Positions 13,496 to 55,081 of a stretch of DNA of 64,000 nt are shown here, in pieces. Below the pieces are notes generated by a model. The model did not search any database. It was not told the origin of the DNA and was given only the letters and a program-made list of their open reading frames with translations. This DNA is from an uncultured Hormoscilla sp. (GTDB lineage: Bacteria; Cyanobacteriota; Cyanobacteriia; Cyanobacteriales; Desertifilaceae). The stretch lies in contig OZ001293.3 in assembly GCA_963921275.4 (NCBI GenBank), positions 2,624,001 to 2,688,000 on the forward strand, in the 5' to 3' direction. A program made the position numbers and the translations under genes. Position 1 is the stretch's first letter. Each line of letters starts with the position of its first letter.

Positions 13496-15317
13496 ATGGA
13501 TGTTTCTCTGAGCAGCTCTCAGGTAAAGCAAAAAGCGCTAGAATTGGGCTTCCATAAGGTGGGCATAGCGGCTATAGATGCTAAAACTGTCAGTAAAGCA
13601 GTTGAACGTTTACAGGCATGGCTAGGAAATGGCTACCAGGCGGATATGGAATGGATGGCAAACCCTAAGCGTCAAGATATCCGTCAGGTAATGCCTTCAG
13701 TTCAGTCTATTATTACGGTAGCTCTCAATTACTATACTGCTCATCAGCGTCCTGAAGGGAGTCAGTACGGAAAAATCTCTCGCTATGGGTGGGGACGGGA
13801 CTATCATCGGGTGATGGACAAAAAGCTGAAACTGTTAGCAAACTGGCTGCGATCGCACTCTTGTGGAGTGGAAGTGCGTTACTATGCTGATACGGGACCT
13901 GTTCAGGATAAGGTATGGACCCAGGCGGCGGGGATTGGCTGGATTGCCAAGAATGGTAATGTAATTACGCGGGAGTATGGGTCTTGGGTATTTTTGGGAG
14001 AAGTGTTGACGAATATAGTTTTAACCCCAGATGGGCCCCATACTGAACATTGTGGCACTTGTACTCGCTGTATAGACGCTTGTCCTACGGGGGCGATCGC
14101 CCAGCCCTTTGTAGTAGACGCTAATCGCTGTATTGCCTATCATACGATCGAGAATCGTGCCGACAGTTTACCCCTAGCGATCGGGTCTCATCTAGAGGGT
14201 TGGGTTGCGGGTTGCGACATTTGCCAAGATGTCTGTCCCTGGAATCAGCGGTTTGCCAAAGAAACCGACATTACTGAGTTTGTGCGATTCGTTCTAGCCT
14301 AACGTGGTCAAACACGGAACGCTAGCCCGGTTTCATTAGCCGGGAACTCTGACCGCATGGGGGTTAAATTCCCCTCCCCCCAGGTACGGGGGTGACACCG
14401 GTCCTCGGTGCTACGAAGCGACATCATCGTGGTGCTAAGCGAGGACTCAAATGTAGGATAACTGGCAGCCTAAGCCGGTGACGCCGCTAGGAAAGATATC
14501 CAAGGTTAGAGCAGGCAAACATGTGCAAGCCTCGTTATAAGGAACCAGCGAAATAAGGCTATATGCGCTGGCCTAAAAAGGAAATGGTAGCTAGTATTAG
14601 TTTTAGACTCTGGCTAATATAGTACTCAAATAGCTCCCGGGGTATAGTGTGGACCTAAAGGTATTGCGAAATGTTGTTAGGGAACGAAGTAACCTCTCGT
14701 GTGCTGTCCATCAGGACAAGTTAGATGTTAAGCGCAAGCCACGGGGGGAGGGATGGCCCAAGAAGCGAATGCCCGGGGTAATTCCTGGGATAACATCTAC
14801 AGTAATGTAGATGATGCTGGGTAGCCAGCGCTGACGTGGGTCGGTGATACTAGGAAGCTGCTGGAATGAGTAATCCTAAAAAGCCACGGAACTAATCCGA
14901 AACGCAAGTGGAGGATAAGGTATGGATAACTGGTAAAACTGACTTGAAAATGGTGATACTAACGGTTATCAGAACAACCACTCGCTAAACCAGGAAAGGG
15001 AAGAAAAGACAGGCGGCAAGGGCTAACGGAAGTAATTCCTATTAAGTCTACCTATGAAAAGGGCCTAGTACCCAGTAGCCGGATGCGGTGAAAATCGCAA
15101 GTCCGGTTCCTCAAGGGAGGGTCGGGAAGCGATTCCCGGCTCGACCCCATCCAACCCCTATCCCGAGAATCTGACTCCCAAGTTGAGCGAATTGGCAGAA
15201 ATTTCTGATGCGGAGTAGAACCGGCGATTTCCCGCTTCGGCCCTGCGGCGGATTAAACCAGAGATGCTGCGGCGAAATGCTCGTGCTAACCTGGAAGCAG
15301 ATGCGCTCGTTGAATAA
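13496..15317 (+). pseudogene. queG: Epoxyqueuosine reductase, exons 13496-14281 and 15153-15317, with in-frame TAG at 15216
   Basis: [34 protein letters not shown]; spliced C-terminus ITEF|NPYPEN..DAE*NRRFPASALRRIKPEMLRRNA. Confidence 0.9.
14282..15152 (+). mobile_element. ORF-less group II intron, family A copy 1 (871 nt), sense in queG
   Basis: 5' GTGCGATTCG; domain V AGCCGGATGCGGTGAAAATCGCAAGTCCGGTT; domain VI hairpin with bulged A; no ORF; three more copies in window. Confidence 0.95.
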
Positions 15318-15942
15318 ATGATGGTAATTATTTTTGATTTTGATGGTACTCTGGCTGATACGCTAGATGCGATCGTCTCTATTACTAATCGCTTATCTGG
15401 GTAATTTGGATATCAACCTGCTAGTCCTGAAGAGGTGATTAAACTAAAAAATTTAAGTTCGAGAAAAGTTCTTCAGCAGTCTGGTATTTCTCTGTGGAAG
15501 TTACCTTTTTTGCTCAAAAGGGTGAGAACAGATTTCAATCATCACATGGATGAATTAAAACCAGTTCCCGGAATTAAAGCAGCCTTGAGGGAATTAAAAC
15601 AGCGCGGTTATCAGCTGGGGATTCTCACTTCTAATGCTCGGGAAAATGTGCAGCTGTTTGCCAAGCTTCATGGTTTAGATCCTCTGTTTGATTTTATTCA
15701 CAATGAATCTGTTTGAAAAAGGGCGGGCGATCGAACATTTGTTAAGTCAGTTAAGATGCGATCGCCAGGAGGTAATTTATGTGGGAGATGAAACCAGAGA
15801 TATAGAGGCGGCCAAAAAAACCAAGATTAGGGCAATCTCCGTCAGTTGGGGTTTTAATTCTCCAGAAATATTGGCCGCGCACAACCCAGATTTTTTGATC
15901 CATCAACCCAGAGAATTGATTGCAGTGATTGAAAATTGCTAA
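15318..15942 (+). pseudogene. HAD family hydrolase (phosphoglycolate phosphatase-like)
   Basis: IFDFDGTLADT, TAA at 15402, GILTSN, frameshift near 15710, YVGDETRDIEAA. Confidence 0.85.
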
Positions 15943-15961
15943 TGGAAAATAAAGCATAAGT

Positions 15962-16180
15962 TATATCCCACTTTCCGCACGACAAGTTGTAACATGCTAA
16001 GTAATACATAATTGCTTGGTTAGATTACTATTGCATTACTTTTTGTGATCCGTACTATATCTGATAATTTAGGAAACAATACGTATATTTATTTATACGG
16101 ATATGAACTTTTCGGTTCGTAAAATCACAAGCTGTTTGTCATCATTTCGTCAAATTTGTCCGTGCGGAATGTAGGTTATA
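15962..16180. mobile_element. MITE-like element
   Basis: Imperfect terminal inverted repeats TATATCCCACTTTCCGCACGACAA / TTGTCCGTGCGGAATGTAGGTTATA around an AT-rich core. Confidence 0.6.
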
Positions 16181-16245
16181 TCAGATCCGGAAAATTGCCC
16201 TAAAATAAAGAAGCAGTGAAATAACCTATTCGTGGGTTTGAGACC

Positions 16246-16525
16246 ATGCCTCGACGTATTAAACTAGAACCCCACTTGACTCCTGAAGAACTGGAAAGGG
16301 GCTATCGGAGCGCCAAAAGCGGAATCCTGCGCAGTCACTACCACATAATTTGGTTGTTAAGCCAAGGTAAAACAACTCTGGAAGTATCGGAAATCACTAG
16401 GAAAATCAAGGGCGCAAACCCCTGCGTAAATGTTGTGCAACAAGCTCAACTCTGGCAAGCTCTACAAGATCAACCTGCGGATGGAGACTTGTGGGATGGT
16501 CTGAAAGTGGCCCAATGGATGAGTG
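16246..16525 (+). pseudogene. IS630-family transposase N-terminal remnant
   Basis: MPRRIKLEPHLTPEELERGYR..RSHYHIIWLL..LWDGLKVAQWM; internally deleted and truncated. Confidence 0.7.
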
Positions 16526-16668
16526 ATATCATGTCCGATTAAATGCCCATAATAAAAATTTTATCATCCTCGGGTGCTGTTGGGTTTCGCTAGCGTTTGT
16601 AGCCGTGTGCTCTACCCAACAAACGCAAGAGATCTTTTTTATTACGGTTAATCATCCGGACTTGATAT
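16526..16668. mobile_element. MITE-like element carrying a REP-like hairpin
   Basis: TIRs ATATCATGTCCG / CGGACTTGATAT; internal GTTGGGT..ACCCAAC. Confidence 0.6.
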
Positions 16669-16730
16669 TAATCGCTGCATACCCCCCCCTCGCAATGACA
16701 AATAAGATGCTTAACCCAGAAGTATTGCCA

Positions 16731-18068
16731 TTACTCTCCAGTAATTGACAAGCCCTCAACCCAGATTCGGGGACAGACTCCTGATCGAGTAACTTGGGGT
16801 TCTTTCTCTACAAAAACAATGGATTTTAGCAACTCCCAAATATCTCCAGCAACGGTAGCGGAATCAACACTTGTCTTTTGCCAGGCGTCCATCAGCCAAC
16901 CATCAAAGGGCAAGGAAAAGGATCCTTGTAAAGGTTGTACTCCTGCATGGAGAGCTTGAAGTTCATCGATGAAAATCACGTTTTTCGCTTCCGCAAGATT
17001 GTATTCTTGTTCAGCGGTAACTCCTGGAAACACGTGATAAAAATTTGGGCTTACTGTTACTTTAGCACCAATATTAGCGTGACCAGTGGGTTGAGAATTC
17101 AGCCGTTTCGCAGTCCCAGCACTGTGCAGGAAGTTAGTCAAAACCCCTTCGGTAATTATGGGGACTCGGCGGGTTGGCGTTCCTTCTCCATCAAAGGCGA
17201 TCTCGGCCACGTTGTCTGGATGCAGGGCGTCGTCGCAGAGGGAAAGCAAGGGAGAAGCAATTTGAGTTCCCAAAGACTCGGGAGTAGAGAGACTTTGCTT
17301 GTCGAGAATATTCTGAGCATTGAAGATATTGGAAAAAGCATTCAGCAAACTGATGAATGCTTCGGCGGAGAAAACCACCAGATATTTACCCGACTTGACC
17401 TTTTCATAGTTCAAGTGACTGATAGTTTTTTCTGCCGCCTCTTGCAGACAACCCTTGACATCTAAATTATCCAGGGAATGGCTGATTCTGAAAGCACCGG
17501 CACCGCGAGGCTTTTTCCCGGGCTGTTCAGTTTTGCTGTAAAGGAAAATCGAGCTGTAGGAGTTACCTTCAGCCCTGGCTGCACCGTCGCTGTTCAGATA
17601 AAATCGGTCAATATCTTCTTGAGCTAATCCATTGTAAGGCACACTGGCGATCGCCTCTGATGCGGACAGTAATTCTTTTTCTGCGCTTATCAATTGCGAA
17701 AGTAACCGATCGGCAGGCGCTGGGGGGGTTTTCCGATCGGCAGTTGCCAGAGTTGTCGTGGCCTCTGGACTAAAATCAGGAACATGTTCCTTAACACCGA
17801 AGAAACTCGCCTCATAAGCGGTTTTTAATGCCAATTCCACACCCTCTGGGTCAACATCTGTGGTGCTAGTCACCCCCATTGTGTTATCCTCGTTCCAGAC
17901 CCGGACCGTCACGCTCGATCGCTGGGATGCTTTCACCTGTTTGGGTTCCCCTTCATATATTTGCACGCTCGTTTCATCCACAGAGGAGCCAAATATATCA
18001 TATTTCTTGATGCCGAGTTTCTCTGCACTTTCTTTGGCCGAACTTGTAACTTCCTTAATGTTTGGCAT
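16731..18068 (-). CDS. pmbA: TldE/PmbA family protein
   Basis: FDGEGTPT, GSFSLPFDG; follows tldD. Confidence 0.88.
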   Translation of the reverse strand: MPNIKEVTSSAKESAEKLGIKKYDIFGSSVDETSVQIYEGEPKQVKASQRSSVTVRVWNEDNTMGVTSTTDVDPEGVELALKTAYEASFFGVKEHVPDFSPEATTTLATADRKTPPAPADRLLSQLISAEKELLSASEAIASVPYNGLAQEDIDRFYLNSDGAARAEGNSYSSIFLYSKTEQPGKKPRGAGAFRISHSLDNLDVKGCLQEAAEKTISHLNYEKVKSGKYLVVFSAEAFISLLNAFSNIFNAQNILDKQSLSTPESLGTQIASPLLSLCDDALHPDNVAEIAFDGEGTPTRRVPIITEGVLTNFLHSAGTAKRLNSQPTGHANIGAKVTVSPNFYHVFPGVTAEQEYNLAEAKNVIFIDELQALHAGVQPLQGSFSLPFDGWLMDAWQKTSVDSATVAGDIWELLKSIVFVEKEPQVTRSGVCPRIWVEGLSITGE

Positions 18069-18194
18069 AACCTATCTCCCTTTTCTGCTAATTGCTAATC
18101 GCTAATTGCTAATCCCTGATCATAATCGTAGGTTGGATTGAGGCACGAAACCCAACCTACCAACCTACTGGTCACTGGTCACTGCTCACTGACA

Positions 18195-19670
18195 CTAGCG
18201 TCCGCCAACAGTAATCGAATCCACCTTCAGATGAGGCTGTCCCACTGTTACGTAGATACTACCACTAACGGAGCCACAGAAACCAGGTGCTAGTCCCAAA
18301 TCTTGGGAACTCATAGAAATCTTGTTCATGATTTCGCTAGCTTCGCCAATCAATGTAGCACCCTTCAGCGGCTTGGTAATTTTGCCCTTTTCAATCAGGT
18401 AGGCTTCATCTACAGCAAAGTTAAACTCACCTGTAGCCCCCACACTGCCGCCGCCCATTTTTTTACAATAAATGCCTTTGTCGATCGAGGCAAATAGGTC
18501 ATCAATGGAGTCGTCTCCGGGGGCGATGTAGGTATTCCGCATCCGCGAAGCTGCCGCAAAGGTATAGCTTTGCCGCCGTCCACTTCCAGTGCGGGGATGT
18601 CCAGTGCGCATGGAACCGGCCCGGTCAGCAATAAAATTTTTCAGGATGCCCTTTTCAATCAACAGGGTTTTTTGAGCGGGCATCCCTTCATCATCCATGT
18701 CGATCGTCCCGAAAGCATTGCCCGATCGCCCTTCATCCCAGGCCGTCAGATTTTCGTGAGCAATTTTTTCGCCTTTTTTATCAATGAAGGGAGTAGTTTT
18801 CTTTTCGATCTGAGTCGTTTCCAGCAGGTGTCCGCAGGCTTCGTGGAAGATTACGCCGCCAAACTTATTCGCCATGATAATGGGATAAGTTCCCGACTCC
18901 ACGTAATCAGCGTAGAGCATTTTCCCGGCCGCTTCTGCTACTTCCGAGGCCGTAGTTTCATAGTCCCAGGTTTTCAAGAAATCTGCTTGACTGGTGCTGC
19001 CAACCCGTTTGTTGATCGCGGAGCGATGGCTACCATCAGCGCACAACAGATTATAACCCACAGATTGAGTCAGGCGGATGTCCCGGGCGAAAGTGCCATC
19101 ACTGGCAGCAACTAGGACCTCTTGCCAATCTCGGAAATAGATCGATCGCTTCGACTGTACGTGACTAGCTTTCTGAGCCAGTTTAGCATTAGCGTCCAGC
19201 AGCACCTCTGACATTTCCCGCATCGAGCTACATTCAGACAGCAATACTTCCTTACCTTTGGTGGTAGCATAGTCTCTGAGGGGTTCCAGGGTAACTTCCG
19301 GGATGTAGGAATTGGCAAGAGACAATTGCAGTCCCAGGATGGAGAGACCTTTTTCCAAAGCAGCTTTCAGTCCCGCAAATGTCAAGTCGTTGGTGCTGAC
19401 ATAGCAGTCCGCTTTGCCGCGAAATACTCTCACCCCAGCGCCAGTTGACAGGCGGGGGGATATACTGGTGATCGCGTCGTCTTCTGCCAGACAGCTAATA
19501 TAGTTTACCCGTTCTAGGAAGAATTCGATCAAATCCGCCCCTGTGGCCCGTCCCCATCCCAGCAGGGTGGAAATCATTGCCTCCCACGAAGCGTCGAAGC
19601 GATTTTTGGTCGAACTGTACTCACGGGCCGACAGTTCTTGGGATTGAGGTGCTGTAATTACTAGATTCAT
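18195..19670 (-). CDS. tldD: TldD metalloprotease
   Basis: HEACGH, DDEG, RMRNT, GFCG. Confidence 0.92.
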
Positions 19671-20281
19671 ACGATCTCTGCTACTGTACTCTCCGATTAT
19701 ACTTAATTTCCCTCACTTTATTTATTTTAACCAATTTCTGTCACATCTGACATCTTGCCTCGATGTCTTCTGGGTAGTGCGGGTAGCGATCCCAGAAGAT
19801 ATCGAAACCCGACAGCTTGCCCGATCGCGCAGCGTGGCGCAGCCATGCGCCCGTGAGTTGCAGGCGAGCACCTTCTATAATACAACATCTCCTACCGTAA
19901 TCCTCTGACCCTAACGCCTCGATCGCCAAGTTTGGGCGGTTAACAAGTCTACCTGTGCTACATTGGGGAAGAGAACATCTGGGGGCGATCGCAATTAATT
20001 CCCTACTTCTTCTATCAGGATATTTTTGTATAAAAACATTCCTGATGGTGGAAAACGTTTTCATTGGAGTTCGTCCTTTCCGTAATATTCTCATAAGGAA
20101 GGTGGCAAGAATTAGAAGTATACTGATAATATAGTCGATCTTCAATGGTTTATCGATCAGGTGCGGGCACTACTCCCGGAAGATTAACAGAGGATATCCG
20201 CACTCCCCCATGAGTCTAGCCCTTGAACCCACATGTTGATAGCTGATGTTTGGCGATCTGCGGACGGCGCGATCGCGATTC

Positions 20282-20938
20282 TCAATTCTCAATTTTCGAT
20301 GCTCCATTCTCAATTTTCAATTTTTCTGAATCAGCTAAAACTCCATTTAGGAATATATCAGCAAGCACTTCCGCCATTTCCTTCATGTCTTGGGGAGAAG
20401 AGTTCGGTTCCACAAGGGTATTTTGGCTGAACCCAGCGATCGTAAACATGCCCAAAAATACCTGAGCCACAATTCTCGGGTTCATGGGGCGGTAGATCCC
20501 CCGATCGATTCCCGTTTGGATGAAAGCTTCCGTCACATCCGTCATTTTCACGATCACTTCCGACTGGATGCGATCGCGCAAATCCGGGTGAAACTGCGCT
20601 TCCATAAAGCAGATCCTGAGTATATCGTTATTTTTCTGCATATTCACCATCCGCCGACGCATCATTTGAGCCACAGCCCGATAGCTTGCCATCTCACTCA
20701 AGTCTGTCAGTAGATCCGTCAGAATTTCAATCCAGCCAGCGCTAGCAATTTCAATTAAAATTGCTTTTTTACTGTCAAAATGCCTAAATATGGTTCCTTC
20801 AGCCACACCAGCTGCTTGTGCCAAATCCCGGGTGGTGGTCCCGTCATATCCCTTATGGGCAAACAACCGCTGCGCCGCTTGTAAGATGCGGGTTCGCGTC
20901 TGAGCTTCTGGTTGGGGAGGACGACTGGCAATTCGCAT
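20282..20938 (-). CDS. TetR family transcriptional regulator
   Basis: RILQAAQRLFAHKGYDGTTTRDLAQAAGVAEGTIFRHF; C-terminus reads through heptamer repeats. Confidence 0.92.
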   Translation of the reverse strand: MRIASRPPQPEAQTRTRILQAAQRLFAHKGYDGTTTRDLAQAAGVAEGTIFRHFDSKKAILIEIASAGWIEILTDLLTDLSEMASYRAVAQMMRRRMVNMQKNNDILRICFMEAQFHPDLRDRIQSEVIVKMTDVTEAFIQTGIDRGIYRPMNPRIVAQVFLGMFTIAGFSQNTLVEPNSSPQDMKEMAEVLADIFLNGVLADSEKLKIENGASKIEN

Positions 20939-21042
20939 GACTAAATCAGGTCTTATTTGACATAATATTTGTAGCCCTATTTGGGAACACACAAGCAGTC
21001 GCTCTCCATTTCTTTACATTCTTTTACATAATTTCATCTAAC

Positions 21043-21154: not shown

Positions 21155-22873
21155 ATTAAACTAAGCCAGTCCGTCACCGGACCGACTCGTTTTCAAAACC
21201 GGACGTGAGATTTTCACCTCATCCGGCTCCTCAGTAACGCCATCCTTGTCATGGACACGGCAACTACCGTCACTGGCAGTCTTGATATCGTGGCAATGTT
21301 TGTGTAGCAGTTGTAGGTTGTCCCACTGGTCCTTACCACCTAATGAGAGTGGCTTGATGTGGTCTACTTCCCATCTGTCGTTATCCTTAAACGTTAGTCC
21401 GTATTGTTGACATTTCCCCTTTTGCCTTTTCAGTAGCATAGCTACTCGGTTACTTAATTCCGGGTTTTTGCCTAGTCTTGTGCTCCAATATGTGAGGTTC
21501 CCGTCGTATGGGCTAGCTCTTCCTTTCACTTTAATGTGTCTCACTATCCCTACACTTGCGTGTCGATTTAGTGTTACCTCCCTTTTATCTTCACACCGGA
21601 ATCGCCATTGTCCATCTTGGTCCACTGACCAGTATTTTTGGGCTATCCAATGCTTTGACTTGTTGGCGTGTCTTCTCTTTGCCCAATCCTACAGGATTTT
21701 CCATAGGTAATCGTCCATGTCCGAGTAAACTTCTTTGCTTACTCCTGTCCTGAAGTAGTTTGCCCATCCTCGTATTATCGGGTTGAGTTTGCTAATCAGG
21801 GCGTCTTGTGGAGCTGCTCTGTAACTGTTTACTATCTCTTTTAACCTTTCTTTGTGCTTACCTGTGGATTTATTACTGGGTTTGATGAGGGTCTTGTAAC
21901 CTAGGGGTTTTCCATGTCCGTTCTTGCTGCTTCTATTCTTACTAATCTCATATTGCCTTACGTTGAACCCCAAGAAGTCGAATCCTGGTTCTTCTCCCTC
22001 TAGCGTATGAGCTATTTTTGTCTTTTCCGGCTTCAATTCTAGTCCAACCCCTTTCTGCCACTCTGCTATGACCACTTGCGCCTCTTCTATCTTCTTTCTA
22101 TCCTCATGCATTACCACAAGGTCATCGGCGTATCTGACCACTGTCAGCTTCTCCTTCTCTCTTTGTGTTTTTACAAGTTCCATCACAGCCTCCTCTAGCC
22201 CATGTAGAGCTATGTTTGCCAGTAACGGTGATATGACTCCTCCCGTACCCTCTTTGGTTGCATACCATTCTTTCTTGTCTATCACCCCGGCTTTTAACCA
22301 TGCCCGTATTTGTTTACGGATTGGTGAAGTCGTATTCAGTTTTTCTATCAGCGCTTTATGGTCAATCTTATCAAAGCATTTTGCAATGTCAGCATCTAAT
22401 ACCCATTTGGGTTTGTACCTAATGCTGTTGAATATTGCTTCGATTGCATCGTGGCATCCTCTTCCAGGTCTGAATCCGTAGGAGTTACCTTCCATATACG
22501 CTTCCCATTCAGGATAACTGCGCAATTTTCAGTAACCCCTGTGTCGCTCGGTCGTGCATTGTAGGTATTCCTAATGGACGTTTTTCGTCTCTCCCTGGCT
22601 TGGGTATCCACACTCGTCGCGCGGGCCGAGCTTGGCTGGAGATTTCTATTTGTCCTACCAGTTCTAGTCGTTGCTTTGGGGTTAGTGATTTCACACCATC
22701 CACACCTGCCGTTTTCTTTCCCTGGTTGTCTTGTGTTACCTGCCGTACCGCTAGACTTTTGGCAGCCCGGGATTTTACCAGCATCATCTGTAAGTTGTCA
22801 GGGCTAATGAAACCCTGCTATCTGGGACAGCTTTTGAATTGTGTCAAGTCGGTTTAATCTAAACGAATCGCAC
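21155..22873 (-). mobile_element. Chimeric, internally deleted group II intron with dead RT/maturase/HNH ORF
   Basis: 5' GTGCGATTCG at 22873, ~80 nt later runs into LAVRQVTQDNQGKKTAGVDG; YADD; HNH; domain V/VI ending TTAGTTTAAT at 21155; frameshift near 22515, PQ lost from GTPQGG, TAG at 21689. Confidence 0.9.
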
Positions 22874-24006
22874 CCCAGATATCCTCTGGATGAATTGGAT
22901 GGGGTCGAGCCGGGAATCGCTTCCCGACCCTCCCTTGAGGAACCGGACTTGCGATTTTCACCGCATCCGGCTACTGGGTACTAGGCCCTTTTCATAGGTA
23001 GACTTAATAGGAATTACTTCCGTTAGCCCTTGCCGCCTGTCTTTTCTTCCCTTTCCTGGTTTAGCGAGTGGTTGTTCTGATAACCGTTAGTATCACCATT
23101 TTCAAGTCAGTTTTACCAGCTATCCATACCTTATCCTCCACTTGCGTTTCGGATTAGTTCCGTGGCTTTTTAGGATTACTCATTCCAGCAGCTTCCTAGT
23201 ATCACCGACCCACGTCAGCGCTGGCTACCCAGCATCATCTACATTACTGTAGATGTTATCCCAGGAATTACCCCGGGCATTCGCTTCTTGGGCCATCCCT
23301 CCCCCCGTGGCTTGCGCTTAACATCTAACTTGTCCTGATGGACAGCACACGAGAGGTTACTTCGTTCCCTAACAACATTTCGCGATACCTTTAGGTCCAC
23401 ACTATACCCCGGGAGCTATTTGAGTACTATATTAGCCAGAGTCTAAAACTAATACTAGCTACCATTTCCTTTTTAGGCCAGCGCATATAGCCTTATTTCG
23501 CTGGTTCCTTATAACGAGGCTTGCACATGTTTGCCTGCTCTAACCTTGGATATCTTTCCTAGCGGCGTCACCGGCTTAGGCTGCCAGTTATCCTACATTT
23601 GAGTCCTCGCTTAGCACCACGATGATGTCGCTTCGTAGCACCGAGGACCGGTGTCACCTCCGTACCTGGGGGGAGGGGAATTTAACCCCCATGCGGTCAG
23701 AGTTCCCGGCTAATGAAACCGGGCTAGCGTTCCGTGTTTGACCACGTTAGGCTAGAACGAATCGCACATCCTCAATAGAAGATTAGCATCGGCTTGAATC
23801 GCCTCTGCGGACACCTCCAGTAATTCACTGCAACGATTACTCAGGAACGGCCAAGCCAAACGGCCATCGTCGCGCCGCAGAATTTGGCAGATCGCCATAG
23901 CCGATCCTCTAGCAAGGATTCGGTCCAGTCTGGCCTCACTTTCGACCTTCACCGCAGGCGTGGCGCAGCCATGCTTGTTTGGTGTCGAATTGCTTAAATC
24001 TCGCAT
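22874..24006 (-). pseudogene. PAS-domain 5' part of a sensor kinase, exons 24006-23768 and 22896-22874
   Basis: Removing the intron gives ..FLSNRCSELLEVSAEAIQADANLLLRIIHPEDIW (PAS IHPED motif). Confidence 0.75.
22897..23767 (-). mobile_element. ORF-less group II intron, family A copy 2 (871 nt)
   Basis: Reverse complement of 14282-15152 with about three substitutions. Confidence 0.95.
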
Positions 24007-29795: not shown

Positions 29796-31799
29796 CTAAT
29801 AATAGTAATACCAGTTTCCAGGTTTAATGCCATTAAGCCACCAGCGGAGCAAAGACCCAACAACTTCCACCTCAATCTCTTGTCCTTTGCGCCGTAAAAT
29901 CGCGTAGGGACTATAGGCTTCGCTGATATCCATACATTGGTGAGAGCCTTCCTTGCAAAAGGCGACAAAGGCAGGAATAGCTGCTCCCTGAGAATCCCAA
30001 TAAATTTCGCTCTTCTCCCGCCACTCCCAGAAAGCCTTCATAACTGTCTGGTGATTCAGTCCTAGCAAATTGATTGGGTCTTTAGCTGACCATTTAGCTT
30101 TGAATGCTGCCTCTAAATCTGGAGTTTCTAGCACTGAGAATACATAGTGCTCGTGGACCTCATCGCGAGCCTCATCGTTCCAGTACTGGGCTATGAGTAA
30201 TGTTGCTGAGTTAAGTTGAGGGTATTTTTCAAAACAAGCTTTAACCCAATTTGACATAGGAATCAATAATTCGCGCTCTTAGTTGTGCTGCTTCCTATTC
30301 ACTGTATAGGTGGATGGGGTCGAGCCGGGAATCGCTTCCCGACCCTCCCTTGAGGAACCGGACTTGCGATTTTCACCGCATCCGGCTACTGGGTACTAGG
30401 CCCTTTTCATAGGTAGACTTAATAGGAATTACTTCCGTTAGCCCTTGCCGCCTGTCTTTTCTTCCCTTTCCTGGTTTAGCGAGTGGTTGTTCTGATAACC
30501 GTTAGTATCACCATTTTCAAGTCAGTTTTACCAGTTATCCATACCTTATCCTCCACTTGCGTTTCGGATTAGTTCCGTGGCTTTTTAGGATTACTCATTC
30601 CAGCAGCTTCCTAGTATCACCGACCCACGTCAGCGCTGGCTACCCAGCATCATCTACATTACTGTAGATGTTATCCCAGGAATTACCCCGGGCATTCGCT
30701 TCTTGGGCCATCCCTCCCCCCGTGGCTTGCGCTTAACATCTAACTTGTCCTGATGGACAGCACACGAGAGGTTACTTCGTTCCCTAACAACATTTCGCGA
30801 TACCTTTAGGTCCACACTATACCCCGGGAGCTATTTGAGTACTATATTAGCCAGAGTCTAAAACTAATACTAGCTACCATTTCCTTTTTAGGCCAGCGCA
30901 TATAGCCTTATTTCGCTGGTTCCTTATAACGAGGCTTGCACATGTTTGCCTGCTCTAACCTTGGATATCTTTCCTAGCGGCGTCACCGGCTTAGGCTGCC
31001 AGTTATCCTACATTTGAGTCCTCGCTTAGCACCACGATGATGTCGCTTCGTAGCACCGAGGACCGGTGTCACCCCCGTACCTGGGGGGAGGGGAATTTAA
31101 CCCCCATGCGGTTCAGAGTTCCCGGCTAATGAAACCGGGCTAGCGTTCCGTGTTTGACCACGTTAGGCTAGAACGAATCGCACAGTCTCCAGAAGGATCT
31201 CCCTCTAGACAATCTTTAGCTATTTGTTTAATTTCATATTCCTTAAAGCTCCTCAGAGATTGTGGCGTGATTCCATCCTGATGAGGACGCCACATTTTAC
31301 CAATAATTTCAACTTCAATGTCATCACCCAGGCGACGGAGAATGGCATAGGGAACAAAGTCTTCCTTAACATTATTTTTTGAGGGAGACTCATTTTTGCA
31401 AAATGCAGCGAAAGCAGGAATTGCAATTCCTGCTTCATCCCAAATTAATTTGTAGTTGTGCGGTAATTTGACTTTTTGATTTTCCGATCGCAAACTGCGC
31501 ATTACTTTGTCAATTTCCTCGCGATCGTGACATGTAAATACTGGCAGATTAACTAAGTCTGTGCTTAAGTGATATTTTGAAGTTAGACCAGCGGACCAAT
31601 CGGGGTTTTCCAGTAATGAGAATATGTATTCGTCATAGACTGCGTCATGTTCCCACTCATTACAATACTCAACGAGCAACACAATAGACTGAAGCTGGCT
31701 GTACTTTTTAAAGCAAGCGGCTGCAAATGGCTTGACCCAATCTTCTATTAGCTTTGCCCGTAATTGGGCTGTTTCTTCTGCTGTGTACATGTATTTCAT
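29796..31799 (-). pseudogene. Two-domain tandem-repeat protein of unknown function, exons 31799-31184 and 30311-29796
   Basis: Both halves share AQLRA..ACF.KY.QL.S..FS.LE.PD..AIPAF.AFCK..PYAILRR; second half has TAG near 30295 and a frameshift near 30250. Confidence 0.75.
30312..31183 (-). mobile_element. ORF-less group II intron, family A copy 3 (872 nt)
   Basis: Near-identical to the other copies, one extra base near 31113. Confidence 0.95.
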
Positions 31800-31839
31800 T
31801 GCGATCGCCCTCTCGAATAAGTCTCCACAACTGTAAAAA

Positions 31840-32523
31840 TTATCCCACAACCAGGTCCAGTTGTTGCTTTCTTTGGCGATCGCATAGCCTGTGCATGTAA
31901 TATTCCAGGATAACTGGCGTTCCATCTGCGGCTCGTTCCCGTACCCAGTCTAACCCAAAGCTGCGATCGGTCAGGGGTTGGTGAATATCCGCCTGTCCGT
32001 TATTGGCCGACAGGTGAAGTTCTCCGATATGTTCGTAGTCCTGGAGTCGGCGCCAGATCTGGGGTGACAGACTACCCTGGCACAGTTGCATATAGATGTG
32101 AGAGACATCAACTGCCAGCACCACCCCCATTGCCATTGCCCGAGCAATTTCTTCATCATCACCGAGGCAGTAGCCAGGATACATAGTCTCTAATAATAGA
32201 TGGGAGTAGGCTCCTGCTGCCAAATTTTTTCTCCAAACCTCAACCATGCTGTCTGTCAAGCGAGGCGGATGGACTGAGTGGCTGAGTGGCAGACATACTG
32301 CGTTTTCGTTCCAAACTTTGCACTTCAGGGCTCGATAGTGAAAGCCGTGGTGAGTTCTACTCTCAACCTGGTAATCTTGCAGCCATTGCCAAAAATTAGG
32401 TGTAGGCACGTTCCCAGGAGTTAACTGTAGACCAGCAGCCCCCAATTCTAGCAATTCTTCTGCCGCCCCTTGCATCGGTCGTCCCTGCAAACAACTTAAG
32501 GCTAGGTAAAGCACCGGTTCCAC
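31840..32523 (-). CDS. Putative metal-binding TIM-barrel protein (xylose-isomerase/AP-endonuclease-like)
   Basis: LETMYP, DVSH, ELHLSANNGQADIH, ILEYY. Confidence 0.55.
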   Translation of the reverse strand: MEPVLYLALSCLQGRPMQGAAEELLELGAAGLQLTPGNVPTPNFWQWLQDYQVESRTHHGFHYRALKCKVWNENAVCLPLSHSVHPPRLTDSMVEVWRKNLAAGAYSHLLLETMYPGYCLGDDEEIARAMAMGVVLAVDVSHIYMQLCQGSLSPQIWRRLQDYEHIGELHLSANNGQADIHQPLTDRSFGLDWVRERAADGTPVILEYYMHRLCDRQRKQQLDLVVG

Positions 32524-38323: not shown

Positions 38324-38327
38324 GGTC

Positions 38328-45168: not shown

Positions 45169-46003
<835 letters not shown>

Positions 46004-46019
46004 AAATCTCAGTTCAACT

Positions 46020-47863: not shown

Positions 47864-47915
47864 TTTACTTCACTTCAATTAAGTAAACAGATAGAATGAA
47901 AACCTCGAAACTCTT

Positions 47916-48280: not shown

Positions 48281-48373
48281 ATTACCGGCTCCCTCGGTCA
48301 AAACAAAGAGGTTCTTGAGAGCGATTGTTTTCAAACAGTTGCAAAACAAAAACGAATCCTCTTGATAACTGCC

Positions 48374-48431
48374 CCCACCCAAATCCCACCCAAATCCCAC
48401 CCAAATCCCACCCAAATTCCACCCAAATCCC
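48374..48431. repeat. 11-mer tandem repeat CCCACCCAAAT x5
   Basis: Directly visible. Confidence 0.9.
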
Positions 48432-48793
48432 CTACATTATCACATATAAGTACATATATAGTCATTACAAGACAAAAATTTCAATTTTGGAATTTTCTTA
48501 AGAACGCTCTCTCAGTGAGTCTATTTTGCAATGTATCTCATAGATGCTAGCGGGCGATCGCGACGATGGGATATTATGAGATCGCCCATACTCCCCTGAC
48601 CCAGAACGCCATAAACAAATTGGAGTATCGAGCGAAATATGTTTAGTAGCCCAAGAATATTTCCAAGCATTAGCAAGCTACACTGGCAGATATCAAATTG
48701 TTGCCGATCCGAAGGTGACGCGGATCTTTCACCCTGACGGAGCAGTCTCCATGCTACAAACAGAACTGTCAATATAAGAGAAGCGGAGGTGCC

Positions 48794-49525
48794 ATGTCGC
48801 TCCCAAAAATTTTACTCTCAAGGATCGCAGAAGCAAAAGCGGCGCTCGCGCAGCATCCTAACTCGGATTTGAATTTAGGTTACCGTCAGGGAATTTGGGC
48901 TGGGTTAAATTATAATATGGATGCTCAGTTGACCCGGGCGGAGATCGGACACAAAAGACGCGCTTTGCTGGCAATTATAGCAGCGGAGCGGGTTATACCT
49001 ATATGGGAAAGAATCTGGTCAATTGATGATACTCCACAATGTATTATAGCTACGGCCCGCCTCTTATTGAATGGATTGTTAGATACAAACATTGCTCGCT
49101 CTTACCGAGATGATAACTGGCAAAAGTTGGAAAGCTTGGCTTGCGCTCCATCATGCCAAGACTGGGAATATCAAAAAGCAGTTAGCGTCGGACTCAGCAG
49201 TATTAGCGCTCTTGGAGCTGTTTTAGATGACGAACAGTTTGATAGCGAGCATATTGACTATACTTTAACTGATGATGAGGTAGATTCTTACTCTAGCGAT
49301 GCATCTTTCTGGGCGGCGATCGCCTACTCGGGATCCCAGAGGAATCCCAGTCACGATGGGCGCAAACAACGCGAGTTTTGGGAATGGTGGCTGGATGAGG
49401 CGGTCAAAAACACTTGGTGGTCTTTTGATGATGATTCATTGCACTTAACGGCGTTTCCTCGCCAAATCCAACTAATTTCTATAGGAGCGGCTCCTCTTCA
49501 GGGAGTAGAGAGTAAAGAATCATAG
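48794..49525 (+). CDS. Imm5-like immunity protein (orphan)
   Basis: LGYRQGIW, GHKRRALLA..VIPIWE, DASFWAAIA, REFWEWWL. Confidence 0.6.
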   Translation: MSLPKILLSRIAEAKAALAQHPNSDLNLGYRQGIWAGLNYNMDAQLTRAEIGHKRRALLAIIAAERVIPIWERIWSIDDTPQCIIATARLLLNGLLDTNIARSYRDDNWQKLESLACAPSCQDWEYQKAVSVGLSSISALGAVLDDEQFDSEHIDYTLTDDEVDSYSSDASFWAAIAYSGSQRNPSHDGRKQREFWEWWLDEAVKNTWWSFDDDSLHLTAFPRQIQLISIGAAPLQGVESKES

Positions 49526-49846
49526 CAGGGCGCCAGTGACAGCACATCAAAGGCGATCGCCAACTTGAGCCAGCGCTGCCCTTAGTTTTGGGGACGTTTG
49601 ACAGGATCCGAATTCCGGTAATCACCGAGCCGTACCCGATCGCCCCCTGAACCTAATCGCACTACCCTAGAGACATCTATCGCCCCCCGATAGCCCTGCC
49701 CTGGCAGCGGGCTCCTACCGAGTTCCCTAGCTCCCCCGCAGGGCTATGAAACTAATTGACAATGGTGCAAGATCTCAGATGCTATTATCCCACAAAAATA
49801 ATCTTACCCACATCGTAAGTTCCCCAAAACAGCTATTGAGCCAACT

Positions 49847-51353
49847 TCAATTAACCACAGTGAAATCATCGACATTAATCAGGTTCTCATCAATCCGCTG
49901 CAGGGTGGCCAAGGTTTCCCCGGCGAAAGAGTTAATCAAGGTATCTCTGCCCTGAGAGACGATCGCCAAATCGTCGAAACTCAAACCTCCTGCAGCCAGC
50001 CAGATCGAGTCCGTGCCATATTCAAAGTCTATGATGGTATCCCGGCCCCTGCCCGACTCCAGGACAAAAAGATCGGCCTGAGATCCCCCGTAGAGGCGAT
50101 CGCTTCCATCTCCGCCGATGAGAGTGTCGAAGCCACGGTCTTCGTAGAGGCGATCGCTTCCATCTCCGCCGATGAGATAGTCGTTCCCATCTTTTCCGTA
50201 GAGGCGATCGCTTCCCTCTCCGCCAAAGAGGGTGTCGTCCCCCTTTTTCCCAAAGAGCCAGTCTTTCCCTCCTAGACCTAAGAGCTGTTCCCCGTTGGGT
50301 GTCCCTTGGAGGCGATCGTTCCGATTATCCTGACCGACTATTGGTGCGGCGACCTCCAGAACATCCTTGACGTCAATAGTAAAGACCTCCTCGTAACGGT
50401 TCCCAGTAGAGTCGGTAGTTTGGACGCGGATGCTGTAGCTCGATTGGGTCTCAAAGTCCGAGGAACTGTTAATTAGCAGGTTTTCTACTATGATGAAGGC
50501 GGCGTTATCATCGGCACCAACGCCGGAGACTAACTGGTAGGTAAAGGTATCTCCCTCATCGGGGTCGGTAGTGGAAAAAGTCCCTACGACTGCACCCTCA
50601 GGGGAGTTTTCGTCAATGCTGCTGCCAGAGAGGTTGAGGTCGGTAGGAGATTCGGCAACATCGTTCACGTTAATCGTGAAGACCTCCTCGTAACGGTTCC
50701 TAGTAGAGTCAGTAGTTTGGACGCGAATGCTGTAACTCGATTGGGTCCACCTCTACCGCCGTTGCCACCTCTACCGCCGTTGCCGCCGTGGCCGCCGCGG
50801 CCGCCGTCGTCGCCGCGGCCACCTCTACCGCCGTTGCCGCCGCCGTAGCCACCTCTACCGCCGTTGCCGCCGAAGCCGCCGTTGCCGCCGAAGCCGCCGC
50901 TGTTGCCGCGGTAGCCATTATTAGCAGAAATAGGAGTGACGAAATTAGCATTACCACCCGTATCGTGCCCGCTGCTATTGCCACCAATGGCGTGATTATT
51001 CACGAAAGTGCTATCGGTCACCGTGACCGTCCCGTTATAGACAAACAGGCCACCGCCCATGCCTGCCCCGCCGCCGCTGCCATTGCCTCCCCGGGCCCGG
51101 CCGTTGCGAAAGGTCAGGTTATCGAAATTGACCACACTGCTTCTGACAAAGAACAGCCGGTATTGGTTGTTGCCACTAATGGTGTTGTTGTTCCCATATA
51201 TCGTGAGCTGGTCGTCTTCTTCAATAAGGGTAGCAACTTCGTCAGGGTAATATTTCCCGTGATGTTAATGGTATCTGCCTGACGGTTATTCTTGGAATTG
51301 GTAATCGCTTGAGAGAGTTCTGCTTCTGTGTTGACGTAGTTAAATTCAGCCAT
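49847..51353 (-). pseudogene. Glycine-rich, cadherin-repeat, RTX Ca-binding surface protein, frameshifted and internally deleted
   Basis: GGGAGMGGGLFV, GGNGG runs, DFETQSSYSIRVQTTD cadherin, GGDGSDRL repeats across three frames. Confidence 0.8.
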
Positions 51354-51394
51354 AATATCTCCTAATGATTGGTTCGGGGGAGCCCTTCTAGGGG

Positions 51395-51647
51395 TTGGAT
51401 AGTTTGGACGACCTGATCGTCGGGGCCCCCGGTGCTAGTAACAGTCGCGGACAGTCCTACGTAGTCTTCGGCAAGAACGACAGCAACCGAGTGGACTTAA
51501 ACAGTGTGACTGCGGGTATTGGCGGCTTTGCGATCAACGGCATCCTCAACAATGACCGTTCCGGTACCAGCGTCAGTAATGCTGGAGACGTGAATGGAGA
51601 TGGCTTGCAAGACCTGATTGTCGGGGCCTCGGGTGCGTCCGGCGGGT
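51395..51647 (+). pseudogene. FG-GAP/integrin-like repeat fragment
   Basis: DDLIVGAPG..GQSYVVFG..SVSNAGDVNGDGLQDLIVGA. Confidence 0.75.
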
Positions 51648-51664
51648 ACTGTTCCGGAAAAATC

Positions 51665-51879
51665 GGACCCGGGGCGGCCCGACAACAGCTCCCGCAGCCG
51701 CCACCGGAGCCATGCCGTTCGCGCAGCGGCGCGTAGCGCTTCCCGACAGCCGTCCCAGCCACCGCCAATCCCATCCCGCCAACCGCTGCGGAAACTCCCG
51801 CACCAGCCGCAGTACCCACCCCGACGCCGGCAGCAGCTTCAATCATGTCTTTGGTCTTGTTGTTCTTAGAGTCCGTCAT
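51665..51879 (-). pseudogene. Small glycine-zipper-like protein, disrupted and truncated
   Basis: AAAGVGVGTAAGAGVSAAVGGMGLAVAGTAVG then GC-rich insertion, GMAPVAAAGAVVG continues in another frame. Confidence 0.55.
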
Positions 51880-51893
51880 CGCTCATGTCCTCG

Positions 51894-53051
51894 TCACATC
51901 TTCTTGAGTATACCAATCAGCGCTTCACCCATAGCGCGACAACCCAGCATTTTCATGCCCACCGTTCCGGCGTCTTCCGCCTGCTCTTGTCCTGAAGGAC
52001 TCGGCATGCTCCAGACACCGCCGGAAAAATCAGACATAATATCACCCGTGCGATATCCCCGATCCAAAACTTGCATCACTGCTTGTTCAATTTTATCGGC
52101 GGCTGCCAGTTCGTTTAACCCATATTTTAACATCATCGCCGCACTCAAAGCTTGGGCTAAGGGATTGGCTTTATCTTGTCCCGCGATATCCGGTGCAGAA
52201 CCATGTACCGGTTCAAACACCCCTGGACCCGATGCCCCTAAACTAGCTGATGGTAACATGCCTATACTGCCCGTGAGCATGGCGGCGGCATCGGAGAGGA
52301 TATCGCCAAACAGATTACCCGTCACGATCGTATCAAACTGTTTGGGCGCGCGCACTAACTGCATGGCGGCATTATCTACGTAAAGATGAGACAGTTCTAC
52401 ATCCGGATATTCTGAAGATAAAAGGATAATGCGATCGCGCCAGAGTTGGGAGACTTCCAAGACATTGGCCTTATCCACAGAACATAGCTTACCGCGCCGC
52501 TTGCGAGCAGTTTCAAAGGCTACCCGCCCGATGCGATCGATCTCAGCTTCAGTATAAGCCATAGTATTCACGCCCCGCTGTGCGCCCGTTTCCGTAGCAA
52601 AGACTCCCTTGGGTTTGCCAAAATAAATCCCACCTGTCAATTCCCGCACCACCATAATATCTACCCCTGCCACCACCTCTGGCTTCAAGGTGGAAGCATC
52701 AACCAACTGAGGTAATATCGTCGCGGGGCGGAGATTGGCAAATAAACCCAAACCCGATCGCAGTGCCAGCAGTCCCGTTTCTGGGCGCTGATGGCGGGGA
52801 AGGTTATCCCACTTGTAACCCCCGATCGCCGCCAGTAACACGGCATCACTGTTACGGCACATTTCCAGGGTGTCAGGGGGCAGAGGTTCTCCGGTGGCAT
52901 CGATCGCAGCACCCCCCATCAGGGCTTCGGAGAATTCAAACTGGATATCGCATTGCTTGCCAATGACTTTCAGGACTTCTACTGTCACAGCCATGATTTC
53001 CGGACCAATGCCGTCGCCCGGAAGTAAGGTAATGCGGTATTTTGGGGTCAT
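51894..53051 (-). CDS. leuB: 3-isopropylmalate dehydrogenase with a 23-aa C-terminal insertion
   Basis: [42 protein letters not shown]. Confidence 0.96.
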
Positions 53052-53154
53052 CTTCACTCTTATTGCTTGTCAGCTATTATCATACTCTATAAAATGTACT
53101 GTATGAGCTTTTCGTCCGGAAGCGAAGGTACAGAACTAGCCAGCTGACAAACAA

Positions 53155-53693
53155 ATGGAATATTTAATCTATTTTGATGTCTGTTGTCTAAATCGTCCCT
53201 TCGACGACCAGACACAGGAACGAGTGCATCAGGAAGCTAAAGCCGTGCGACTAATCATAGATCGTTGTCACAGCGGTAACTGGCAGATGCTTGGCAGCGA
53301 AGCCATAGATGCAGAACTCGATCGGACCCCTACTGGGGCAAGAAAACAGCAGATGGAGACCTGGGTTGCTTTGGCCATAGCGACAGTCGCGATCGACGAA
53401 CAAATCTACTCGCGTGCTGCGGAACTTTTTGAACTGGGGTTAAAAAATTACAATGCGGTGTCTGGAGCATGCCGAGTCCTTCAGGACAAGAGCATGCGGA
53501 AGACGCCGCCTTGCACATCGCTTGTGCGGAAGTGGGAAATGCCGACATATTGTTAACGACAGACGATTGCGCTGCGCGCACGCTACGCGATCGGATGTTG
53601 CGTTTGGCGGCTAGGTTAAGCTCTGTGTTACAAGTAAAAGTGGAGAACCCATTGCGGTGGCTAAGAGAGGTAACAAATGATAGACGTGAGTAA
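53155..53693 (+). pseudogene. PIN domain toxin disrupted by two micro-insertions
   Basis: IYFDVCCLNRPFDDQTQ..; 53-nt insert 53455-53507 shifts the frame; ALHIACAE..LLTTDD. Confidence 0.85.
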
Positions 53694-55081
53694 ACTGACT
53701 TTAGAACAGATTATCACACTAGTAATAGACGCTCTTGCTGAAAGTCTCGGTCCTGCGGGGATGGGGCGTTTTATGGAGCAGTTCGAGAAAGGGAGTGGAG
53801 ATTACACTCGCGATCGGGATAAATTTTTAGGCAATAGCACCCTTGAGGAAATTTTTGCCCAGATCCAACAGCGGCGACAACAGCAAACTGAAAATGCCAA
53901 TCGGACACCGTTCCGGAAAAATCTGACCCAATTCAAAAACGCGATCGATGTTCGCCAGCTAACTCTATCCCAGATTAGGGAATTGGGAATAGAAGTGCTG
54001 ACCTTGGCCCTTGGCCGATCGGGCATGGAGCGATTTCTGCAAAAATTAGAAATGGACAATGGTGATTATTACGGATGGGGTCGAGCCGGGAATCGCTTCC
54101 CGACCCTCCCTTGAGGAACCGGAATTGCGATTTTCACCGCATCCGGCTACTGGGTACTAGGCCCTTTTCATAGGTAGACTTAATAGGAATTACTTCCGTT
54201 AGCCCTTGCCGCCTGTCTTTTCTTCCCTTTCCTGGTTTAGCGAGTGGTTGTTCTGATAACCGTTAGTATCACCATTTTCAAGTCAGTTTTACCAGTTATC
54301 CATACCTTATCCTCCACTTGCGTTTCGGATTAGTTCCGTGGCTTTTTAGGATTACTCATTCCAGCAGCTTCCTAGTATCACCGACCCACGTCAGCGCTGG
54401 CTACCCAGCATCATCTACATTACTGTAGATGTTATCCCAGGAATTACCCCGGGCATTCGCTTCTTGGGCCATCCCTCCCCCCGTGGCTTGCGCTTAACAT
54501 CTAACTTGTCCTGATGGACAGCACACGAGAGGTTACTTCGTTCCCTAACAACATTTCGCGATACCTTTAGGTCCACACTATACCCCGGGAGCTATTTGAG
54601 TACTATATTAGCCAGAGTCTAAAACTAATACTAGCTACCATTTCCTTTTTAGGCCAGCGCATATAGCCTTATTTCGCTGGTTCCTTATAACGAGGCTTGC
54701 ACATGTTTGCCTGCTCTAACCTTGGATATCTTTCCTAGCGGCGTCACCGGCTTAGGCTGCCAGTTATCCTACATTTGAGTCCTCGCTTAGCACCACGATG
54801 ATGTCGCTTCGTAGCACCGAGGACCGGTGTCACCCCCGTACCTGGGGGGAGGGGAATTTAACCCCCATGCGGTCAGAGTTCCCGGCTAATAAAACCGGGC
54901 TAGCGTTCCGTGTTTGACCACGTTAGGCTAGAACGAATCGCACAGGCTCAATAAGGATAAATGGCTATCCAATCTTACCTTTGACCATATTCACGATCGC
55001 ATCGCCGCCCTGACAGCTACTACTCCCGCAAATCATTGCAATGAGATCGCAAATGAAGCCCATCAACAATCGCCTTTGTAA
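53677..55081 (+). pseudogene. Duplicated-domain antitoxin-like gene knocked out by an antisense intron
   Basis: Two LG..GM.RF.....GDY repeats; frame continues GDYY|RLNKDKWLSNLTF when 54073-54943 is removed. Confidence 0.7.
54073..54943 (-). mobile_element. ORF-less group II intron, family A copy 4 (871 nt), antisense to host gene
   Basis: Near-identical to other copies; substitution in domain V at 54124. Confidence 0.95.

Follow-up and report, generated by a model that had tools for sequence, protein, structure and literature searches.

A group II intron without an open reading frame in 138 near-identical copies in an uncultured Hormoscilla chromosome: guide pairing, exact insertion and a putative helper in trans

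Introduction

The question raised by the locus described here is how four near-identical copies of an intron that encodes no protein came to lie so close together in a cyanobacterial chromosome. The DNA concerned, hereafter the window, is a stretch of 64,000 nucleotides from an uncultured Hormoscilla sp. (assembly GCA_963921275.4, contig OZ001293.3, positions 2,624,001 to 2,688,000), and F0 is our name for the family of the four repeats in it. A preliminary description of the window had read them as a recent burst of a group II intron without an open reading frame (ORF), spread with relaxed specificity by a reverse transcriptase (RT) encoded elsewhere. According to our analysis, F0 has 138 full-length and nearly uniform copies, inserted exactly at sites with a common motif complementary to the guide loops of the intron, and we consider it very probable that it is an ORF-less group II intron which is mobilised in trans and has recently burst by RNA-guided retrotransposition. 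Trans-mobilised introns of this kind are the standard model for a possible overrun of the early eukaryotic genome by introns; the known bacterial cases are small (17 ORF-less introns in Thermosynechococcus elongatus) or not split by family (Arthrospira platensis).

The copies in the window and the anatomy of the intron

The four copies of F0 in the window are:

14282..15152, plus strand: copy 1, 871 nt, sense in queG; 5' exon ending GAGTTT, first 3' exon base (+1) A; private change C384T
22897..23767, minus strand: copy 2, 871 nt; 5' exon ending GAGGAT (4 of 6 pairs in intron-binding site 1, IBS1)
30312..31183, minus strand: copy 3, 872 nt, with an extra A after intron position 70; 5' exon ending GAGACT
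54073..54943, minus strand: copy 4, 871 nt; 5' exon ending GAGCCT, IBS2 CCTTA (5 of 5 pairs), +1 G; G820T in the domain V bulge

When the copies are aligned with 50 nt of flank on either side, identity starts exactly at GTGCG and stops at ...CCCCATCC, and the flanks are unrelated. Copies 1 to 4 differ from the consensus of all genomic F0 copies by 1, 2, 1 and 2 changes, respectively, and their near-identity is thus borne out, as are the coordinates, strands and 5' exon ends reported in the preliminary description. GTGCG opens all four copies and 137 of the 138 F0 copies listed for the genome, the remaining one starting with GTGTG. The longest stop-to-stop frame of F0 has 58 codons, and a tblastn search of F0 with an intact RT returned no RT similarity (best E = 0.94), in agreement with the earlier statement that no protein is encoded.

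The following parts were located, given here on copy 1 (plus strand), with EBS for exon-binding site:

14536..14542, plus strand: EBS2a (U255), the invariant A256 and EBS2 (UAAGG, intron 257-261), from covariation with exon positions -14 and -13 to -9
14605..14610, plus strand: EBS1 (AGACUC, intron 324-329), located in a terminal hairpin loop; the stem shows covariation among families, and the loop is matched by the target logo with its wobble alternatives
14867..14915, plus strand: remnant of the start of an RT ORF in domain IV (intron 586-634), identical in 38 of 49 nt to the ORF-start region of family F11
15049..15050, plus strand: internal target (intron 768/769), the point of F0-in-F0 insertions elsewhere in the genome
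about 15074-15107, plus strand: domain V (Rfam RF00029)
up to 15152, plus strand: domain VI to the 3' end (...CCCCAUCC), including A15144 (intron 863), which lies 9 nt before that end and is presumably the branch point

The Rfam model of domains V and VI, RF00029, recognises three of the four copies (44.4 bits; gathering score 40). Copy 4 falls below the gathering score; its domain V has the change G820T in the two-base bulge. Judged by the sequence, A863 of domain VI lies unpaired between two helices, and it is presumed to be the branch-point A. EBS1 was retained at the position proposed for it. Of the ATAAGG suggested as EBS2 at 14537-14542, covariation supports 14538-14542; A14537 is invariant and lies outside the pairing, and EBS2a was added at 14536. 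The 3' end was set by empty sites, and sister families have a 4-nt tail of equal length. A boundary 2 nt earlier, where the Rfam model ends, was rejected, since it is backed by none of the joined flanks, compared to 17 for the 871-nt unit.

A consensus fold computed for representatives of 32 ORF-less families has 149 pairs; 117 of these occur with at least two standard pair types, and 95.8% of the cells are paired. As far as its sequence tells, the F0 ribozyme is under constraint. It also looks complete: with a 5' GUGCG, EBS1, EBS2, EBS2a, domain V and a domain VI with a bulged A, F0 has the features of a group IIB-type intron without an ORF.

Family size and exact insertion

The window lies on the chromosome, a 6.88-Mb contig of the 7.03-Mb assembly. 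A blastn search with copy 1 detected 138 full-length copies of at least 98.5% identity, all of them chromosomal (plus strand 64, minus strand 74), and 26 further partial high-scoring segment pairs of high identity. The prediction of many more copies genome-wide is thereby confirmed; at a genome mean of about 1.3 per 64 kb, the four copies in the window represent a mild local excess only. The consensus itself is carried by 61 of the 138 copies. On average, a copy has 1.23 changes to the consensus and two copies differ by 0.27%, and 85 of the 104 variable columns are singletons. Two subfamilies of 117 and 21 copies are split at positions 830-831, and each includes copies without any other change. 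After copies with shared flanks had been merged and tandem partners set aside, 108 distinct sites remained, 70 of which are in DNA that is unrepeated elsewhere.

F0 is the largest of many such families. The genome has 479 domain V hits, and 420 introns with a paired 5' end and domain V occupy 6.2% of the chromosome. At 93% identity these fall into 91 families, with 146 members in F0 (interrupted ones included) and 75 in the next, F1, which is likewise young (72 copies, on average 1.7 changes).

If 14 nt of flank from either side are joined, 17 of the 119 distinct junctions are found intact elsewhere in the genome. Similarly, the queG site is uninterrupted (...ACTGAGTTT followed directly by AACCCCTAT...) in all four congeneric species genomes compared (G001-G004), queG being the one site of the 138 for which the orthologous empty site was compared. 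Insertion of F0 is exact and leaves no target-site duplication.

The repeat is also evident at the level of sequencing runs. In three DNA runs of one study (X1-X3), single intron contigs reach about 80-130 times the depth of the flanking contigs; the summed depth of a contig is not equal to copy number, and these runs may be the source of the assembly itself. At queG, the exon-intron as well as the intron-exon junction is crossed by contigs in X1 and X2, and in none of the runs compared there did a DNA contig join the exons across the site without the intron. A run from a different study (X5) yielded a 753-nt contig with one difference to F0 (window 14468-15154), the loose end of which matches the flank of another F0 site; the F0 family is thus also present in the sample of another study.

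Target-site rules

The logo of the 108 sites is complementary to EBS1, EBS2 and EBS2a, with an additional A at +1. The base counts are:

Upstream and IBS2a: -15, A 77; -14, A 50, C 32, T 21
IBS2: -13, C 73, T 20; -12, C 62, T 34; -11, T 72; -10, T 66; -9, A 65
IBS1: -6, G 96; -5, A 65, G 37; -4, G 81; -3, T 85; -2, C 78, T 25; -1, T 95
3' exon: +1, A 81, G 14; no information downstream of +1

The alternatives at -5 (A/G), -2 (C/T), -12 (C/T) and -13 are those that preserve a G-U wobble with AGACUC and UAAGG. The A/G pattern at +1 fits a U as partner, and +1 is A in nearly all families.

To map EBS2, 242 introns that lie outside F0 and differ in their 5' exons were aligned over the first 480 nt, and each intron column was scored for complementarity to each exon position, 86 distinct variants being weighted equally. 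Intron positions 257-261 covary with exon positions -9 to -13, and position 255 with -14, with a Watson-Crick excess of 35-46 points (46 for 255 with -14); all other cells remain at 10 or less. A256 is invariant in 84 of the 86 variants. A competing EBS2, AAGGTT at intron 223-228 opposite -15 to -10, performed better on the F0 logo alone, but was rejected as it gave 1.77 pairs across families compared to 1.83 after shuffling. Accordingly, the EBS2a-IBS2a layout of IIB1/IIB2-type target recognition is present in F0. In IIB1/IIB2 introns, DNA integration depends on this contact, whereas splicing does not (PMC8643678); its covariation in introns without an ORF thus argues for selection for mobility.

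None of the sites pairs perfectly. Including wobbles, IBS1 forms 6, 5, 4 and 3 pairs at 38, 56, 12 and 2 sites, respectively, so that 94 of 108 sites have five or six pairs, compared to 1.6% of random positions (200,000 sampled). Scored against the 6-nt EBS2 of the preliminary description, IBS2 has 2-6 pairs, mostly 4-5, and IBS1, IBS2 and the A at +1 together amount to 8-12 of 13 pairs at F0 sites, never 13. The window copies 1 to 4 have 6/6 (one wobble), 4/6, 5/6 and 5/6 pairs in IBS1 and 4/5, 4/5, 4/5 and 5/5 in IBS2. A perfect Watson-Crick site, CCTTAT-N-GAGTCT-A, does not exist in the genome, either occupied or empty. Thus, every copy is ectopic, which points to retrotransposition and not to homing, and the relaxed specificity proposed for the element is supported. 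About 1% of random positions score at least 9 of 13, and the supply of sites therefore does not appear to limit the spread.

A purine, mostly A, is also common at -15 in other ORF-less introns (161 of 190), and 42 of the 53 RT-bearing introns have one as well. In the position matrix across families, -15 covaries with no column of the intron, and the purine is a candidate protein contact.

Age of the burst

In the four congeners, the best relative of F0 is 91% identical (in G004) and shares EBS2a with it, but neither EBS1 nor EBS2; in the host DNA around queG, this genome and G004 have about 95% identity. ORF-less relatives at 75-83% identity exist in all four congeners, and 36 further genomes searched outside the genus gave only matches the size of domain V and a few short hits at chance level. 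The ORF-less lineage is therefore old. F0 itself gained the guides it has now only after its lineage had separated from that of G004, and its burst followed. Together with the many copies still equal to the consensus and the empty queG site in congeners, this sustains the original view of a recent burst, which appears to be very recent and specific to this species lineage.

Source of the reverse transcriptase

The genome has 93 RVT_1 matches and 81 RT-like frames of at least 200 aa, 22 of which reach 550 aa or more. In a maximum-likelihood tree built from the first 500 nt of the family representatives, all RT-bearing introns group in one clade, clade A (support 100/96), and F0 groups with essentially all ORF-less families in the other (94/36). 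None of the representatives in the ORF-less clade has an RT of its own. F19, F5 and F61, which at first sight were RT-bearing members of it, turned out to be ORF-less introns with a clade A intron nested in or adjacent to them. An intact RT-bearing intron with the ribozyme of F0, the helper for which the preliminary description had suggested to look, was accordingly not found in this genome, the RT carriers all belonging to the sister clade. The more general proposal of an RT encoded elsewhere is supported by the long RT-like frames in that clade.

One intact RT of 592 aa has RVT_N, RVT_1, GIIM and HNH domains and a YADD motif, and matches chain 6ME0_C over its whole length (3.9e-114); PMC8643678 cites 6ME0 for the cryo-EM structure of an intron from T. 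elongatus. In total, about 20 intact, TeI4h-like and HNH-containing RTs appear to be encoded in the RT-bearing clade. A connection of F0 to this RT lineage is seen in domain IV. Intron positions 586-634 resemble the region around the RT start codon of F11, and their translation is a broken version of that N-terminus; the domain IV comparison scores 47, compared to 24 +/- 3.7 for shuffles. Since F0 retains the ORF start, it can be considered a deletion derivative of an RT-bearing intron; a C-terminal ORF remnant was not found in it. In other group II introns, the ORF-start region is the primary binding site of the RT. We infer that the helper is an RT of the sister-clade introns, acting in trans.

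Twintrons, tandem arrays and host genes

F0 has also inserted into itself. Five F0-in-F0 self-twintrons occur, all at intron position 768/769, with outer copies at four or more genomic sites and carrying different private variants. The site, ...CCTATTAAGTCT followed by A, is an ordinary imperfect match with about 140 occurrences. In addition, there are two head-to-tail F0 arrays, one double and one triple. The copies of the triple array carry different private variants and come from both subfamilies, and are therefore not local duplicates; its 5' exon, AACCTTTCGGAGTCT, is the best match seen. An occupied site still presents the whole 5' exon together with a G at +1, the second commonest +1 base, which suggests repeated insertion at one 5' exon. 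F0 is also found inside other introns and RT genes. At four loci of the chromosome (contig C1, 613774-614358, 826691-827260, 1664867-1665436 and 3401355-3401924), F0 abuts RVT_1 matches that start at profile position 24-29, which suggests that it lies within the RT gene of one clade A family, at one of these loci as the double tandem.

With regard to host genes, the 108 sites were compared with frames of at least 100 aa that are restored upon removal of the intron: 40 are in sense, 29 in antisense orientation, and 39 in neither. The cumulative GC skew, computed to look for a strand bias by replichore, is too weak and irregular to place origin or terminus. The gene interrupted by copy 1 reads:

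13496..14281, plus strand: 5' exon of queG (QueG_DUF1730 and Fer4_16)
15153..15218, plus strand: 3' exon of queG up to TAG (15216-15218); the G004 orthologue has TGG

Copy 4 lies antisense in a 178-aa frame that is restored by removal of the intron, and a 261-aa frame without a Pfam family (31140-31925, same strand as copy 3) extends 44 nt into copy 3.

Proposed mechanism and alternative explanations

It may be proposed that F0 arose when an RT-bearing intron lost its ORF, and that the retained ORF start would still be recognised by the RT/maturase/HNH-endonuclease of about 20 intact TeI4h-like introns of the sister clade, which would splice F0 and insert it into DNA in trans by reverse splicing and reverse transcription. 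The DNA site would be chosen by the RNA, through EBS1 with -6 to -1, EBS2 with -13 to -9, EBS2a with -14 and a U with +1, with -6 and -1 as the most conserved positions, a favoured purine at -15 and tolerance of 1-5 mismatches. Since recognition would involve the 5' exon almost exclusively, occupied sites could be hit again, giving rise to the tandem arrays, and the internal near-match of F0 could be hit repeatedly, giving rise to the self-twintrons. Splicing and present-day mobility of F0 are predictions from sequence features. The copy number, anatomy, target rules, exact insertion and recency are shown by the sequences.

Several findings weigh against this explanation. The Rfam models of domains D1-D4 remain below threshold on F0 (best RF01999, 22 bits with a gathering score of 36; E = 0.043). 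At -14 the A expected opposite U255 occurs at 50 of 108 sites only, although a strict Watson-Crick pair is needed there in the IIB1 intron EcI5. Taken as a whole, the ORF-less clade is only modestly supported (94/36). The ORF-start remnant is just 78% identical to the nearest family, F11, whose representative has an in-frame stop near the N-terminus, and for the eight other clade A representatives tested the similarity of domain IV to F0 does not exceed that of shuffles; no RT can be linked to F0 specifically. The age of the copies could be underestimated as a result of gene conversion, the cyanobacterium being possibly polyploid. The orientation counts show no clear sense bias, so that rescue of host genes by splicing is not evident, and in queG the nonsense codon TAG follows 21 codons after the intron junction, which means that about 30 codons are lost even if the intron is spliced.

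Whether the burst continues is a separate question. Tentatively, it may be speculated that F0 is engaged in a live, runaway invasion, spreading at present to ectopic sites anywhere, i.e. single-copy genes in either orientation, occupied sites and F0 itself. If so, F0 would be more similar to a eukaryotic short interspersed element (SINE) than to a homing intron, and no other system at hand would come closer to the proliferation of introns that has been proposed for early eukaryotes. The opposite view, that F0 is a spent fossil of a real burst, its mobility lost with the helper or with its own activity and its copies decaying neutrally, is possible but appears rather unlikely to us. It would agree with private mutations also in catalytic parts, such as G820T, which affects the domain V bulge in copy 4, with the 59 of 81 RT-like frames that are shorter than 550 aa, and with both the lack of a sense-strand bias and the nonsense codon that queG carries downstream of the insertion. 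However, 61 of the copies still equal the consensus, identical copies exist in both subfamilies, and 22 RT-like frames of at least 550 aa persist, one of them with all domains and YADD.

Mobilisation of F0 by a free-standing or unrelated RT/maturase instead of the RTs of sister-clade introns is improbable. No single one of the 93 RVT_1 matches stands out as the helper, and only 46 of the paired introns have an RT-like frame, which would leave room for such an enzyme. In contrast, domain IV of F0 keeps the ORF-start region of the sister RT lineage, the preference for a purine at -15 is common to ORF-less and RT-bearing introns, and in T. elongatus the RTs of ORF-bearing relatives do the job (PMC2882425).

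It might also be argued that the copies multiplied mainly at the level of DNA, by segmental duplication, as passengers in mobile elements or by gene conversion. Indeed, 27 of the 138 copies share flanks (groups of 9, 6, 5, 3 and 3 copies and six pairs), and 38 of the 108 distinct sites have a repeated flank. We hold this to be quite improbable as the main route, since collapsing the flanks leaves 108 distinct sites with 70 in unrepeated DNA, the boundaries are exact, and the common motif of the sites is complementary to the guide loops of F0. Finally, 0.9-kb elements of high copy number are hard to place and the DNA runs covering the region may be the source of the assembly, but a repeat count produced by assembly is hardly credible given the depth of the intron contigs, the crossed queG junctions, the empty paralogous and congeneric sites, the private mutations among the copies and 108 different flanks.

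Relation to known introns

The preferred reading, a trans-mobilised ORF-less intron, has a clear precedent. T. elongatus has 28 introns, among them 17 ORF-less ones derived from a single deletion, which are mobilised by driver RTs and form twintrons (Mohr, Ghanem and Lambowitz 2010, PMC2882425). Like F0, the TeI3 introns are cyanobacterial IIB introns that lost the RT ORF by a deletion in domain IV and kept a remnant of the ORF start. TeI3 is moved in trans by the RTs of ORF-bearing relatives (TeI4), as we propose for F0. In both genomes ORF-less copies outnumber RT-bearing ones, and both have twintrons and insertions in mobile elements. The likeness of F0 to TeI3 is one of described features; the only sequence match here is that of the RT to 6ME0_C. 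The systems also differ in several respects. Compared to 17 of 28 introns in T. elongatus, there are 138 F0 copies and about 420 paired introns here. That article stresses six families and mostly good EBS/IBS pairing, whereas F0 has spread with one unchanged guide set to imperfect sites (8-12 of 13 pairs), in contrast to the family divergence in T. elongatus. Self-twintrons arise here at 768/769 and not at the RT start, a C-terminal ORF remnant was not found in F0, and the word 'tandem' does not occur in that article (PMC2882425).

A. platensis, which is likewise filamentous and has a genome of about 6.8 Mb, also harbours very many group II introns: at least 150 were reported for strain NIES-39, 79 of them without RT (Fujisawa et al. 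2010, PMC2853384), and 101 by Miura et al. (2022), the maximum among 1,790 representative bacterial genomes (PMC8919778). The count obtained here is about three times as high (479 domain V hits, 420 paired introns) and consists mostly of ORF-less introns, the A. platensis figures being totals for the whole genome and not for a family. With regard to target recognition, EcI5 (IIB1; Monachello et al. 2021, PMC8643678) resembles F0 in that EBS2 has 5 bp and that EBS2a, which pairs with -14, is the middle one of three adjoining bases and is followed by A. In contrast to the strict Watson-Crick pair of EcI5, F0 has the expected A at -14 at fewer than half of its sites, and while no statistical support for EBS2a pairing was found in organellar ORF-less introns (PMC8643678), the ORF-less introns studied here do covary.

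A literature search revealed no bacterial genome with several hundred group II introns, although a paper on this organism could have been missed. The kind of element is thus already known; new are the scale, the ectopic spread with a single guide set, and the tandem arrays. One family with one guide set at 108 independent sites represents a natural data set on targets, which covers key positions, tolerated wobbles, EBS2a and the purine at -15, and provides evidence that imperfect pairing suffices for spread on a large scale. It documents by-products of that spread, i.e. tandem arrays, self-twintrons and gene insertions without orientation bias, and it points to about 20 RTs of the thermostable TeI4h type as candidate drivers.

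Other features of the window and the genome

Two further introns, both also recovered with RF00029, are located in the window:

21155..22873, minus strand: degenerate RT-bearing intron of clade A; RT without its N-terminal part, in two frames (RVT_1 with GIIM, and HNH)
45169..46003, plus strand: ORF-less intron of family F1, 835 nt, with an Rfam domain V; 75 members genome-wide

The RT of the first of these is truncated and split, in line with the earlier conclusion that it is dead. The 5' end of this intron lies 23 nt downstream of copy 2, and both introns interrupt one short frame.

Compared to this genome, queG of G004 (contig C38) has gained or kept about 90 nt more in frame (30 residues), an insertion that may be a small mobile element. 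A HAD-like frame 3' of queG (about 15320-15420) is interrupted by an in-frame stop (...NRLSG*FGYQ...) whose position is identical in G004, suggesting a pseudogene common to both species. Outside the chromosome, a contig of 31,420 nt (C3) has a G+C content of 17.6%, compared to 47.4% for the chromosome, and could represent foreign DNA or a contaminant, either an organelle or plasmid-like. Within the window, a single match to the Rfam model CRISPR-DR28 (36.6 bits, with a threshold of 35) is located between two long frames at 59756-59779 on the plus strand.

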